From contig JBCBZT010000011.1 in assembly GCA_039815185.1 (NCBI GenBank), forward strand, positions 32,001 to 96,000: DNA of 64,000 nt. The letters are read 5' to 3'. The position numbers and the translations under genes are program-made. Positions 30,005 to 50,099 of this stretch are shown in pieces (position 1 is the stretch's first letter; each line of letters opens with the position of its first letter). The DNA is from Cyanobacteria bacterium P01_A01_bin.123 (GTDB taxonomy: Bacteria; Cyanobacteriota; Cyanobacteriia; Phormidesmidales; Phormidesmidaceae). The notes beneath the pieces are model-generated. The model did no database searches, was not told the DNA's origin, and worked only from the letters and a program-made list of their open reading frames with translations.

Positions 30005-31585
30005 TCACGCCAAACCGCAAACCACCCGAAAACCAACATCGTCGCAGCAATCGCCGGGATCGTTGTAGTAGCGAAAAGCAGACCGACAACCCGCCGGATT
30101 GAAGAGCCACGAACCACCGCGCAGCACACGAAGTTCACTATTTCCGCCCCTAATCCAGGCACTGCTATCACGGGGCGCACCCTGGTAATTTTCATGCCAA
30201 TGATCGGCACACCATTCCCAAACGTTGCCATGCATGTCGTGTAAGCCGAAGTCATTGGGCGAGAAACTGCCGACCTTGATCGTTTCTTCTCGATATCTAC
30301 CCTTAGCCCCAGCACCGTAGATGTAATTTCCGTGGTAGTTGGCTTGCTCGGGGGTGATCGTCTCGCCAACGTAAAACGGCGTTGTCGTGCCAGCCCGACA
30401 GACATATTCCCATTCGGCTTCGCTGGGCAGTCGATAGCGCTTATTGGTTTTGTGCGACAGGCGATCGCAAAACTCAACCGCATCATGCCAAGAAACCTGC
30501 TCAACGGGGCGATGATTTCCTTTAAAGTGAGACGGATCTGGATCCAGATCCGTCTCGATTTTGGACAGTTTTGTGGCCACACTCCACCATTGCGCTTGGG
30601 TGACCGCAAACTTCCCCATGAAAAAAGACTGAATTTCTACCCGATGCTGGGGGCCTTCGCGATCCTCGCGTTCAACCTCTTTGGCAGGGGAGCCCATGAT
30701 GAACAGATCACCGGGAATAGCCACCATGTCGAGTGTTCGGCCACTGCCTAAATCCTCCTGAAAATTCTGGTGATGGCTGGGCGGCTGCGTGGGCACAGAC
30801 CGTTTCACCGATGCGGGCTGTTTCAATGGGGGTGCCGATGGCGACAACACCTGCACCTTAGACAAGATCTCAAAGGCAAACGCACTGGCATGACGAGCCG
30901 CAATTTCTTGAGAGCCCTGTTGATCAGACGCTGTTTTGTGGTCAATCAGGTCAGAAATACCCCGAATCACCAACGCAGCCACCTGCTGATTCGCATGGAC
31001 AGCATCCAGAAAGCCAAAGCCTTCCATTTCAACCGCCAGGGCATCGCCATAGTACGATCGCAAAAACTGGAAGACCTCAGATTTTGTTGACGCCACCACT
31101 TTTTCGCCTGCCGCGATCGGCCCGACAAATGCTCTTGGTTGAGCAGACGGTTGAGACGTTAATCTCCTCAACCAATCCGATTTCCTGGCTTCGGCTTTAG
31201 CGCGTTGTTCCAGACGATAGGCACTAAGCCCCAGGGTAGGTCTAGGTCTGAATGTCTCCCCCGCTTTCCCCGATTCATAGCCATAAATTTTGGTGGAAGC
31301 GACCACATCCCCCAGCCGCACATCCTTAATGCCGCCAGCCACCCCGACGAAGAGAATAACATCGGGCTTGAAATGAGCGATTGCCCTTTCGGCTTCGGCT
31401 GCTGCCCCCGCATTGCCCGCTCCCACTTCAGCAATGCCCACATTCCAGGTCTGTCCATTGGCAGCAAACGTTCCCCGCTCGTAAATGGTTCCCTGGGGAT
31501 GGGTCTCTTCCTGGAGTGCATCCAGATGTATCCGCACGGCCAAGTATTCAACCTGTAGGGCAGTCAAGATTACGGCACGCGGCAT
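30005..31585 (-). CDS. PNP/MTA-SAH nucleosidase domain + FGE-sulfatase (SUMF1/CLec) domain protein; candidate DGR target
   Basis: N-term ILTAL..EY, VGVAGG, VEMEG, IRGISD; C-term [28 protein letters not shown]...RSA.R...GFRVV. Confidence 0.9.
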
Positions 31586-45769: not shown

Positions 45770-47830
45770 TCAGACCCTATCGGCGAAGTGATCCAGTAGC
45801 TCTCGGTGCAGAAAGCGATAGCTGCCGCCAACCCGCTGCAATAGGCGACGCTCTACACAGTAGTTGAGGAACTGGGCTAAGTTCCAGGGAGCGATGCCCT
45901 GCTGCCAGAGTACCCAGCGCAGGCAAACGTGCTGAGCGCAGGCCAAGCCGCCGCCAGATAAAAAACCAAAGAGCAGCGCACCAAAAATGCCGGGGAGGAT
46001 GAAGCTGGGAAAGATTTGCCAAAGCGTACTTAAAATCGCTTGTCCACTCTCTCCCTCAGCAACACCTTGGGCAACAGTTGAAGGAAGTTCGCCAAGACTT
46101 GCAAGAATGATGCCAAAGGGATAACTGAGGACTGTTGTCCATAGACAGCTTTTCAGAGAATTCCAGATGCCTTGATTGGGGTGTGATCGCACTTGTAAAT
46201 CTTGCTTCAGCCCTCCAATCAGCCCGAAAATCAGTCCTACAATCAGCCCTACAATCAGCCCTCCAATCAGCCCTCCAATCAGCCCTCCAATCAACCCTCT
46301 AATCAGCCCTCTAATCAGCCCTACAATCAGCCCTACAATCAGCCAACCTTTCAAACTGTCTAAAATTTCTCGTCGCACCTCGTATGACATCGAAATTTTG
46401 AACGTCTCAACAGAGGCGATATCATCCAGCCATCCAATCAGCCATCCAATCAGCCCTACGATCAGCCCTCCAATCAGCCCTACGATCAGCCCTCCAACCA
46501 GCCCTAAAATCAACCCTAAAATCAGCCCTAAAATCAGCCCTAAAATCAGCCCTAAAATCAGCCGATATTGCCGTCTAGCTTGCTTTGCCTCTAGCCAGCT
46601 TGGCTGTATCTGTTCAATCAGCAGTTCCACCCGGTTGGCTTGCTGCAACTGTCGCGCAATCCAGGCTAGGGGCTGCTGAGTGCGTCGCCGATTAGGTTCC
46701 TGTGCCAGGGTTGGGTAAGCCCAGCCTTTTTTCGATAAATCTTCCCGACGATTGCTTTCCCGCACTTCGTGCGACAACTGCCAGTCAATATACTGGCGGA
46801 TCAACTCTGTTTTATTTTCAAAGGGCGCTTTCGGGTCGTAAGTCCGCGCTGCCAGCGCCACGAACAGCGGTACCCGCAGCAGCCCCGGATCCCCCTCTGC
46901 GGTTGGCTCCAACAGCTTTCCGAGCCGAGGATTGGTGGCAATCGCCGCCCACAGCGGCGACTGCCGCGCCGCCAAAAAGATTTGGATCTGCTCATCGGTC
47001 AACAGCTCTAAGCGGATTGCCCCGTTCAGCGTGTTCAGCTTAATGCCCGCCTGAGTAAATTCCTTGGTTCGGCAACACACCACCAGATGGGGATACTGCC
47101 CCGCAAATTCCTTCAGTTTTTGAGTGCATTTTTGCTGCCGTTCCATTCCCAGCTCATCCAGGCCGTCCATCAGCGGCAGCAGCGCCTGCTGATCCAGCCA
47201 TCGTTCATACAGCTTGGCTTTGCGATTGCCCCCGTGCTGCTCATACAGTTGCTCAATCAGCCAATCGCGAATGCTTTGATTATCTTTCCGCCAAGTCGAG
47301 AGTTCAAACACCACCGGAATCACCGTTTGCGGCTGAGCCAGGGCACCGCACATCAGTTGCTCCGCTAACCCCAGCAGCGCCGTCGTTTTCCCCGCACCGG
47401 GGGTCCCCAGAATCAGCAGCTTCCGGGCGATGTCCTCCCGCCCAAAGGTTTCAATCAAAAGCTGACGCGGATCGAGGGTGTCCTCTGGCTTCCCCTCAAT
47501 CTGCAACACTCGCTCCGCTTCCAACGGCGACCGCCCCACCCAACTCAGCTGCTCCCGAAAGTTGACGGACATCAGTGCCTTATCCCGACCCAACGTATCC
47601 ATCAGCCGTTTACGAATCTCAGGCAGTTGCTTTTCCTTCAGCAGCCGCATTGCCCAGTGCCAGTCCACCCCTGATGATGCAGACTGCCCGAACTGCACAA
47701 GAGCCTTATTGATCGTGACCTGATTATCGTGGCTATTTTCAAAGCTAACGGCATCTCCCCCGGCCTGGGTGAGCTGAACCTGGCTATTCTGAATTTGGCT
47801 ACCTTCGATGTTTTGGTCTTGCCCTGCCAT
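45770..47830 (-). CDS. NACHT NTPase with multi-TM Gly-Leu-Ile repeat region and Q/N-rich N-terminal motif
   Basis: GTPGAGKTT Walker A, LMDGLDEL Walker B, GGSYRFLHRELLDHFA C-terminus. Confidence 0.9.
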   Translation of the reverse strand: MAGQDQNIEGSQIQNSQVQLTQAGGDAVSFENSHDNQVTINKALVQFGQSASSGVDWHWAMRLLKEKQLPEIRKRLMDTLGRDKALMSVNFREQLSWVGRSPLEAERVLQIEGKPEDTLDPRQLLIETFGREDIARKLLILGTPGAGKTTALLGLAEQLMCGALAQPQTVIPVVFELSTWRKDNQSIRDWLIEQLYEQHGGNRKAKLYERWLDQQALLPLMDGLDELGMERQQKCTQKLKEFAGQYPHLVVCCRTKEFTQAGIKLNTLNGAIRLELLTDEQIQIFLAARQSPLWAAIATNPRLGKLLEPTAEGDPGLLRVPLFVALAARTYDPKAPFENKTELIRQYIDWQLSHEVRESNRREDLSKKGWAYPTLAQEPNRRRTQQPLAWIARQLQQANRVELLIEQIQPSWLEAKQARRQYRLILGLILGLILGLILGLILGLVGGLIVGLIGGLIVGLIGWLIGWLDDIASVETFKISMSYEVRREILDSLKGWLIVGLIVGLIRGLIRGLIGGLIGGLIGGLIVGLIVGLIFGLIGGLKQDLQVRSHPNQGIWNSLKSCLWTTVLSYPFGIILASLGELPSTVAQGVAEGESGQAILSTLWQIFPSFILPGIFGALLFGFLSGGGLACAQHVCLRWVLWQQGIAPWNLAQFLNYCVERRLLQRVGGSYRFLHRELLDHFADRV
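46206..46563 (-). repeat. two blocks of 12-bp coding tandem repeats (GLIx)n
   Basis: ATCAGCCCTCCA/ATCAGCCCTAAA units at about 46206-46345 and 46427-46563. Confidence 0.85.
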
Positions 47831-47884
47831 TATTGCCGCTTATCCTGCCTGCTTTCTCTGGTGCCCTTGCCCCTTACCGTTGAG

Positions 47885-48367
47885 CTACAGCCCAAAGAAC
47901 GTAACCGCTACCCCAATCCACGGCGCAACCGCCTTAAACACCTCCGTCCCCGTTTGCCAAAGGCTCTTACCCGCTTCAGTGCTGTCCTTCAGCGTTTTCA
48001 GCGTTTCGCTAACCTGCTTCAGGTTTTGTCCCACCAGTTCCTTATTGGGGGTTTCCTTTCCCGCCGCTCGCTTCGCCGGACGCAGATAATCCAGCAGTTC
48101 CTCCTGCATCGCTGGGGTGAGGGCAGTGCCTTTCACAGCCGCTTCCAATTGTTCAATCAAGCCAACCACCTCTGCGCCGGTTAGCCCCTGCTGCTGAGCT
48201 TGCAGATCTCCAGTTTGGTTCTGCTCAAGGTCCCGCCCCGCTTGGCCCATTTGCACCATGCCCCCGGTTAGCGTGACGTTGCTGAGGCTTTGGGACTGAT
48301 CGGGCTTACCTGATTTCGGAGACTTCTTCCAAAACATTTTTTGCGAGCCGCTAGTTTGTCCCATCAT
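47885..48367 (-). CDS. small protein: N-terminal Q/G-rich motif + helical domain with hydrophobic C-terminus (start may be 48337)
   Basis: 160-aa ORF co-oriented and ending 54 bp upstream of the NACHT gene. Confidence 0.75.
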   Translation of the reverse strand: MMGQTSGSQKMFWKKSPKSGKPDQSQSLSNVTLTGGMVQMGQAGRDLEQNQTGDLQAQQQGLTGAEVVGLIEQLEAAVKGTALTPAMQEELLDYLRPAKRAAGKETPNKELVGQNLKQVSETLKTLKDSTEAGKSLWQTGTEVFKAVAPWIGVAVTFFGL

Positions 48368-48924: not shown

Positions 48925-49509
48925 ATGGCCTTAATTACAGCCAAGCGCTTCAGCGTAGAAGAGTACCATCGCTTAACAGAGCTGGGCTTTTTTCAGAGTG
49001 ATGAGCGGCTTGAGTTGATACACGGGGAAATTATCCAGATGGCAGCCAAAGGTGTTGCCCATGAAGTGTTTTTGACACGCTTGCTGAGAGAGCTGCCCAA
49101 ATGTTTGGCAGAAACGGTTACCCTCCGTTGCCAATCCCCCATCACCTTGTCACCAGACAGCGAACCCGAGCCAGACTTTGCGATTGTCCGCAATCGAGAC
49201 GATGATTACTTTGAGGGGCACCCTCAGCCAGCCAATATCCTATGGCTAATCGAGGTATCTGACTCATCACTCGCTTATGATCAGTCGGTCAAGCTGGCGA
49301 TGTATGCTGCCCACGGCATTACACACTATTGGATTTTCAACTTACTGGATAGCGTTCTAGAGTGCTACAGCGACCCCTATCAAAATCAGCAAGGGACTTG
49401 GGCCTATCGGATGAAGCGAATTTATCTGCCGACAGAAACAGTTATGATTCCCCAGCTGGATACTCAATCATTGCTGGCGCTGGGTAAGGTATTTCCACCA
49501 AATCAATAA
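48925..49509 (+). CDS. Uma2 family endonuclease
   Basis: FSVEEYH, ELIHGEII.M, PEPD, IEVSDSS, YWI. Confidence 0.9.
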   Translation: MALITAKRFSVEEYHRLTELGFFQSDERLELIHGEIIQMAAKGVAHEVFLTRLLRELPKCLAETVTLRCQSPITLSPDSEPEPDFAIVRNRDDDYFEGHPQPANILWLIEVSDSSLAYDQSVKLAMYAAHGITHYWIFNLLDSVLECYSDPYQNQQGTWAYRMKRIYLPTETVMIPQLDTQSLLALGKVFPPNQ

Positions 49510-49517
49510 GCAGAATA

Positions 49518-50099
49518 TCAGCCCCTGCGTTTCAACCAATGAAAAATCATCTCAGCAGAAAGCTGTAAGTCAACATCTGGCAAACAGGGCAGTAAGCTAG
49601 CCCCGCTTAATAACGTTGGCAGACGATTGGGTTGATAGCAAAAAACCGATTTTTCTTGGGGGTCAAGCAACCAGCCTAATCGCGTTCCGTGCTCAAGACA
49701 GTGCAGAATATTGCCAGTGACTCGGGTTTGACTTTGATTCGGCGATAAAATCTCAATCACCCAGTCGGGCGCGAATTTAATGCCACCACTAGAAATCTCG
49801 CCATCCTCGTCAACTGGAATTTGATCACTCGCTGCGACGACAATATCGGGCACAATCGAGCGTCCCCCGAACGTACACCGTAGCTCTGGAAATGCTTCAT
49901 AAGCACTCTCTAAAGCGTCAATGGCTGCAACTAGTTTTTTCTGCAAGAGGCTGTGTTTACTGCCACCCATCGGTTTTTGGCTGATTTTGCTGTTGCCGTA
50001 TTCCCAAGCAGGCGATTCGTCAATATAAGGCAGTTGTAAGAATGCCTGGAGTGTCATGGATTGGGGAGGAGCAACCGTCATCTCAAGCCTCTCAATCAT
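49518..50099 (-). CDS. Uma2 family endonuclease
   Basis: FPELRCTFGGRSIVPD, APDWVIEILSP, GWLLDP. Confidence 0.9.
   Translation of the reverse strand: MIERLEMTVAPPQSMTLQAFLQLPYIDESPAWEYGNSKISQKPMGGSKHSLLQKKLVAAIDALESAYEAFPELRCTFGGRSIVPDIVVAASDQIPVDEDGEISSGGIKFAPDWVIEILSPNQSQTRVTGNILHCLEHGTRLGWLLDPQEKSVFCYQPNRLPTLLSGASLLPCLPDVDLQLSAEMIFHWLKRRG

Follow-up and report, generated by a model that had tools for sequence, protein, structure and literature searches.

Amyloid signalling in multicellular bacteria has been described for the Bell/BASS1-10 pairs (accessible part of Dyrka et al., 10.1101/2020.01.06.895854). According to the same part of that work, only the C-termini of Bell proteins and of other effectors were searched in the BASS screen, and effector motifs are still placed at the C-terminus in the available portions of a methods paper from 2025 and of a review from 2026. 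Since genome screens assumed this position, an inverted layout would have been missed. NACHT proteins with transmembrane (TM) segments inserted in the module have already been described and are read as membrane sensors (accessible part of Kibby et al., 10.1101/2022.07.19.500537), therefore this half of the system presented here is not new. The analysed window comprises 64,000 nt of contig JBCBZT010000011.1 of Cyanobacteria bacterium P01_A01_bin.123, and all positions are counted within it. It contains a small gene, putatively encoding an effector with an N-terminal motif in front of a four-helix bundle, and downstream of it a gene for a NACHT NTPase with a membrane insert, the putative sensor (Table 1). 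We regard it as an even call whether this pair represents a two-gene cyanobacterial cassette, in which a membrane NACHT acting as sensor would convert, by amyloid-type templating, an inverted effector directed at the membrane. The match of the two N-terminal motifs is weak for the single pair and clear at the family level.

Pairing and co-evolution of the N-terminal motifs

Both open reading frames (ORFs) proposed in an earlier note on this DNA were recovered at their positions and in common orientation on the minus strand, separated by a gap of 54 bp. Translation of the small gene probably starts at the second Met codon at 48337, resulting in a protein of approximately 150 aa, because 94 of 119 close homologues begin with M[FL]xxK. 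The co-occurrence of the motif pair in adjacent genes, which the earlier note had set as a check, is seen in the related loci, 37 out of 40 of which carry the NACHT gene directly downstream; one more contains a truncated motif-bearing ORF. With distant members included, 159 loci held the domain, 131 of which were distinct and 120 usable (11 were dropped as truncated or due to too little flank). Seven of these 120 are without a downstream ORF, leaving 113 for pair scoring. A motif match scoring at least 40 was observed within 600 nt downstream for 86 of the 120 loci, while only one of 120 has such a match on the opposite strand and one of 77 upstream. The 27 downstream partners scanned comprise 14 NACHT proteins, two PDZ proteins, one each with nSTAND1, iSTAND, and FGE-sulfatase, and eight matching no family; the motif match holds across all five of these partner types. 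In the genome, which is 99.99% complete, no third protein with this motif type was found, and among 31 long loci, any additional gene is shared by 6 at most. Therefore, the output should lie within the pair.

As claimed beforehand, the two 27-mers align without gaps (8/27 identities, BLOSUM62 score 35). Taken alone, this match is marginal: 48 of 5000 shuffles score as high, and so do the N-termini of 34 among the 12,081 ORFs of the genome. Position-specific scoring matrices (PSSMs) detect both copies at profile level, with the next ORF far lower. With a PSSM of small-protein motifs from other loci, the own locus and its nearest relative being left out, the small protein scores 71.5 bits, this NACHT 31.8 bits, and the next ORF 14.3 bits, which places the NACHT N-terminus on rank 2 of 12,081 ORFs of the genome. 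The reverse PSSM, built from NACHT-side motifs, gave scores of 62.3, 27.0, and, for the next ORF, 15.1. In the 48 pairs assigned to the same type as the window pair, both motifs have the core Q-x-Q-x-hydrophobic ... VQ-x-x-QAG[RG]D in common. The motif is Q/N/S/G-rich and K/P/L-poor, which together with its length fits the BASS description, and by eye it resembles the ends of BASS training sequences of classes C01 and C02 (accessible part of supplement 1 of PMC8086366). A likeness of the tetrapeptide VQMG to the RHIM core had been suggested as well. VQMG is indeed present in the sequence, yet 23 of 48 small-protein motifs contain [IV]Q[ILVM]G as opposed to only 1 of 48 NACHT motifs, and the likeness is thus considered incidental. 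The BASS3 signature G-phi-Q-phi-G is found in 0 of 48 motifs on either side. Due to the absence of this signature and of an RHIM-like core common to both partners, membership in RHIM, PP, or BASS3 was rejected.

Own partners score 51.8 compared to 36.1 for other partners (n=113; 0/20,000 permutations). When the set is clustered at 50% domain identity, the own partner takes the first rank for 13 of the 19 divergent pairs. Drift after one old duplication would result in equal matches with any partner; instead, a preference for the own partner was observed. A single motif column of the 48 pairs is occupied by Q on both sides in 19 cases, by another residue on both sides in 29, and is never mixed. 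Since this column changed only twice on each of the two trees (the NACHT tree comprises the 45 of 48 NACHTs of sufficient length), about two events rather than 48 are represented. Insertions, deletions, and substitutions common to both partners occur in several clades, and near-identical small proteins precede two distinct NACHT clades, indicating partner swapping. Identical residues are encoded by the same codon at 196 of 438 positions, compared to a fraction of 0.40 for non-partners. As the synonymous codons agree little more than in non-partners, a recent duplication was rejected as the source of the likeness, and it is selection rather than recent copying that keeps the match.

A second, divergent copy of the module is located in this genome (L042, contig C39:1-925); its partner runs off the contig end, and the motif contains two inserted residues on both sides. 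A Nostocalean-type variant (L050, L052, L053, and L066-L068) carries a heptad-repeat motif on both partners, with FGE-sulfatase, iSTAND, or uncharacterised proteins on the partner side.

Proposed mechanism and alternative explanations

Nucleotide exchange and oligomerisation are established behaviour of STAND proteins. In the proposed chain of events, the membrane-embedded NACHT would sense a cue, probably via its variable membrane insert, and, its Walker motifs being intact, would exchange its nucleotide and oligomerise. Oligomerisation may cluster the N-terminal motifs of the NACHT into a cross-beta seed, which would template the N-terminal motif of the small protein; at this step, matching and co-evolution are observed and templating is presumed. 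The conversion may in turn destabilise the four-helix bundle and free the C-terminal hydrophobic helix to damage the membrane, by which the cell would be killed or arrested as a defence. Release, damage, and death constitute the weakest step of the chain.

To the broader proposal of a mirror-image amyloid branch we give slightly less than an even chance. This branch would comprise an unnamed four-helix effector with an N-terminal motif and a C-terminal membrane helix, which via several co-evolving motif variants would connect to interchangeable receptors of the membrane NACHT, nSTAND1, iSTAND, FGE-sulfatase, and PDZ types, and it would represent a new cell-death executor apart from HeLo/Bell/MLKL, present in approximately 15% of the sampled class including Nostoc PCC 7120. 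If true, a new death effector would be added, amyloid templating would be able to release a C-terminal helix, and membrane NACHTs as well as non-STAND receptors would be added to the proteins that use amyloid signalling. Programmed cell death in cyanobacteria would also become more accessible to study: natural matched and mismatched motif pairs provide built-in specificity controls, and a copy is located on a plasmid of the tractable Nostoc PCC 7120.

Several observations weigh against templating between sensor and effector. The window's own pair scores 39, just under the cut of 40, and belongs to a clade that matches weakly, with rank 21.5 of 34 for its representative. The motif shows no enrichment in V or I. 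A matched downstream gene was found in 4 of 14 fused loci compared to 96 of 106 stand-alone loci. The tail of the small protein is moderately hydrophobic, its best 19-mer reaching a Kyte-Doolittle value of 1.45 and thus remaining under the TM threshold of 1.6, which is reached by only 13 of 67 members. The bundle also occurs behind the motif in CHAT, TIR, and pentapeptide fusions, and this is just as compatible with a general role as cap or adaptor. Among 98 scanned neighbours (of 217 representatives), 14 match PADLOC, mostly with generic domains and with no control. Fibrils, binding, toxicity, and defence are putative attributes of the pair.

Among the alternatives, the one that survives best, though still unlikely, is that the small protein represents a cap, an adaptor, or an inhibitor. 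The output would then be the NACHT membrane insert, forming a pore on oligomerisation, or the small protein would hold the NACHT off. The 52 longer representatives of the small module comprise 18 with pentapeptide repeats, 9 with CHAT, 4 with TIR, one each with AbiTii, TRADD-N, and PMT, and 18 matching no family; the bundle behind the motif in such fusions (CHAT, TIR, AbiTii, TRADD-N, pentapeptide) would suit this role, as would the different helical domain that replaces the bundle behind a near-identical motif on the epsilon plasmid of Nostoc PCC 7120. It is likewise in line with this role that the NACHT contains several G-rich hydrophobic segments and that the tail of the small protein stays below the usual TM threshold. 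However, the same small protein pairs with FGE-sulfatase, iSTAND, and nSTAND1, and the accessible part of Kibby et al. (10.1101/2022.07.19.500537) interprets the TM regions of bacterial NACHTs as sensors. By partner class, the downstream partners are receptor-class, and the small-module fusions include the effector-class CHAT and TIR. As the bundle is constant and the variable partners are receptor-like, the bundle is favoured as effector over cap or adaptor.

Less probable still is a finite contact via beta-strands or a short beta-solenoid, by which the motifs would dock in the manner of an EAD-like homotypic adaptor and without self-propagating amyloid. Co-evolution indicates matching, not fibrils; heptad-repeat versions of the motif occur in some relatives, and there is a systematic difference between the two sides, with the NACHT motifs more acidic (net charge -2.2) than the small-protein motifs (-0.7). 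Against docking, both motifs are about 25 aa long, disordered in the models, and by eye similar to the accessible BASS training sequences, and those BASS motifs that were tested formed fibrils according to the accessible literature. A complex prediction of 3+3 motif peptides resulted in a score of 0.01 with controls that did not fold, which favours neither view.

We consider it quite improbable that matched-motif signalling serves a non-immune role in development, envelope stress, or cell-cell contact. PDZ-bearing and uncharacterised partners would agree with such a role, as would the ordinary metabolic genes around the pair in the window and the fact that no clear defence island was seen among the 98 scanned neighbours. 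It is opposed by the patchy and mobile occurrence of the cassette, which as a whole is present in only 1 of 30 near relatives and is found on plasmids of Nostoc and Acaryochloris, by partner swapping, and by the homology to a PADLOC candidate; moreover, of 54 loci with enough flank, 36 contain an intact NACHT, 5 a broken one (5 out of the 41 that carry one), and 13 none. That the likeness is due to chance, composition bias, or a relic of local duplication is hardly credible, since the marginal single-pair score is outweighed by the detection at profile level, the preference for the own partner, the concerted changes, and the difference in synonymous codons, by which this explanation is largely refuted.

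Features, relatives, and genomic context

Table 1. Coordinates of the gene pair and its features within the window
Feature	Position	Strand	Residues	Remarks
Small gene, putative effector (N-terminal motif, then four-helix bundle)	47885..48367	-		160 aa from first ATG
Motif, small-protein copy	48221..48301	-	23-49	Left disordered by AlphaFold2
Four-helix bundle	47888..48184	-	62-160	Helices 64-80, 85-102, 109-129, 131-151, 155-158; pLDDT ~90
Amphipathic/hydrophobic C-terminal tail	47888..47962	-	136-160	Nearly invariant W150 and G152
NACHT NTPase gene with membrane insert, putative sensor	45770..47830	-		686 aa
Motif, NACHT copy	47744..47824	-	3-29	Disordered in model
NACHT nucleotide-binding domain	47006..47422	-	~137-275	Walker A G142-T149; Walker B DGLDE 222-226
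Membrane insert	45956..46576	-	419-625	Hydrophobic, G-rich
C-terminal segment	45779..45955	-	626-684	Most conserved; helix-helix-hairpin-helix

In the AlphaFold2 model of the small protein, residues 1-59 are disordered (predicted local distance difference test, pLDDT, <50) and followed by a confident four-helix bundle, in agreement with the helical remainder and the amphipathic/hydrophobic tail proposed from the sequence. P107 is nearly invariant in the family, as are the two tail residues of Table 1. A hydrophobic C-terminal end (last 25 residues) was found in 54 of 67 members, a hydrophobic N-terminal end of the same length in 1 of 67. Among 309 candidates, 220 are close homologues, and all entries of the listing that have an NCBI organism name come from cyanobacteria; a profile search yielded 317 representatives at 50% clustering. 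Fold searches with the bundle listed generic four-helix bundles (best Z 10.9, root-mean-square deviation 3.2, 103 aligned residues), with Bell, HeLo, MLKL, and Bab absent among the listed matches, and Foldseek gave no match with E <0.001. A PDB sequence search resulted in weak matches only, the 67 diverse members have no Pfam family in common, and TCAD2 and DUF4404 are language-model leads only (0.89-0.90). A search for longer homologues of the bundle, a weak test, found none, and in 0 of 150 representatives the bundle is situated N-terminal to a whole NACHT; representative P0133 looks like a deletion fusion. Six matches in proteins of about 500 aa (L060-L065) fell below 20 bits on rescoring and were dropped as probably due to chance. 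A pentapeptide-repeat membrane protein of this genome (L195:1788-3911, contig C19) has at its end a beta-rich low-complexity stretch and a distant relative of the bundle (hhalign probability 88%).

The NACHT matches Pfam PF05729 with 36.7 bits (cut-off 26.7), and the best fold matches of its AlphaFold2 model (pLDDT 75) are NLRC4 and NOD2. Across 38 relatives, the key residues of Walker A and of Walker B (DGLDE) do not vary, and both motifs fit the signature given in the accessible part of Kibby et al. (10.1101/2022.07.19.500537). As had been predicted, it is a membrane-type NACHT without a match to a TPR or WD40 Pfam family; LRR and ankyrin repeats were not detected either. Its hydrophobic insert comprises 107-301 aa across the 38 relatives, and part of this G-rich region is encoded by two 12-bp tandem arrays (46207-46344 and 46427-46563), a possible route to rapid sensor variation in view of the widely varying insert length. 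Residues 626-684 may represent the second half of a winged-helix domain, as judged from the predicted secondary structure and a known NLR motif. In this genome, at least seven more NACHTs belong to the same membrane-insert family and have other N-termini, and one member of that family (L194, contig C35) carries the known adaptor EAD10 in the N-terminal slot.

Of 401 genomes of the class, 61 contain a strong match (at least 100 bits; manual count of the listed matches), and 120 contain a match at E 1e-6, weak relatives included. The family is not restricted to filamentous cyanobacteria, the form suggested in the earlier note, since it is also found in Microcystis, Chamaesiphon, and Acaryochloris. 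No relatives were found in viral contigs or phage records. Plasmid epsilon of Nostoc PCC 7120 (L178, 647-6413; WP_010994161-164) harbours two tandem motif-matched modules with nearly the same motif, followed by a long protein with a Walker A-like motif. The first module ends in the different helical domain and the other in this bundle, pointing to another, as yet unnamed family of bundles in this position. On the Acaryochloris plasmid pREB6 (L179:5410-5700), the NACHT partner contains an in-frame stop just before the motif.

Within the window, two Uma2-family endonuclease genes (48925-50099) are located upstream of the cassette, and comparable genes adjoin some of the other loci. A fusion of PNP_UDP_1 and FGE-sulfatase (30005-31585, minus strand) shows the effector-plus-lectin-fold architecture of conflict systems. 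Promoter and terminator scans of the locus revealed signals at chance level only.

Comparison with known systems

EADs (accessible parts of Kaur et al., PMC7159879 and PMC8195603) resemble the present pair in that the same module in adjacent gene products couples sensor and effector; they differ in that the small protein matches no EAD, TCAD, or Trypco family of Pfam. For the membrane NACHTs, the N-terminal effectors and adaptors listed in the accessible part of Kibby et al. (10.1101/2022.07.19.500537) include neither this motif nor a separate motif-bearing partner gene.

PDC-M14B is a predicted PADLOC candidate (accessible part of Payne et al., 10.1101/2024.01.29.577857), the C-terminal ~100 positions of which match the bundle. 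PDC-M14 is not named in the accessible main text of that paper. The C-terminal part is matched by 64 of 67 members (E 0.001). Of the 267 positions of the profile, however, only ~150-266 are matched and the N-terminal ~145 remain unmatched, and no PDC-M14A match was found in P0001 or 16 other partners, so the full PDC-M14 is not present in these. The PDC-M14B profile also matches Methanosarcina acetivorans, used as a control genome; this lineage reportedly carries Bell domains and NLRs.

HET-S/NWD2 and other fungal amyloid pairs (accessible parts of PMC9815663, PMC12881547, and PMC12261475) share with the proposed cassette a NACHT N-terminal motif that templates a neighbouring effector, whereas the fungal effector motifs are described as C-terminal. 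None of the 67 small-protein members matches the HeLo, HeLo-like, or SesA families of Pfam at E 0.01. Bab/Agp (BASS11), an antiphage system of E. coli (accessible part of Ibarlosa et al., 10.1101/2024.11.07.622273), likewise consists of adjacent genes with a common motif, with a small helical bundle containing one hydrophobic helix and a motif reused with TIR, CHAT, and NACHT. In contrast to the present pair, the Bab motif is C-terminal, its hydrophobic helix is N-terminal, and Agp is a TPR-GreA/B-PIN protein; furthermore, antiphage function was demonstrated for Bab/Agp and is putative for the present pair.

The earlier note had regarded the system as possibly undescribed. This stands for the pair with an N-terminal effector motif, which was not found in the accessible literature on amyloid signalling, EADs, bacterial NACHT/STAND, and ParA (the BASS, Bab/Agp, and PADLOC supplements may bear on it), but not for the TM-NACHT class. 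With Bell/BASS, as far as the accessible text describes it, the locus shares a small helical protein of ~120-150 aa encoded beside an NLR-type gene, the occurrence in cyanobacteria, and a Q/N/G-rich, K/P/L-poor motif of ~25 aa at the NLR N-terminus that is also linked to TIR and CHAT; here, too, the matching motif is present at the NLR N-terminus and in the adjacent collinear gene product. It differs from Bell/BASS in the membrane insert that the NACHT carries instead of TPR/WD40, and in the hydrophobic helix, which is C-terminal here and N-terminal in the Bell domain. Finally, the effector motif of Bell proteins is C-terminal, whereas here, as had been proposed, the order is inverted: the motif precedes the bundle, and the bundle forms the protein end in 148 of 150 listed representatives.

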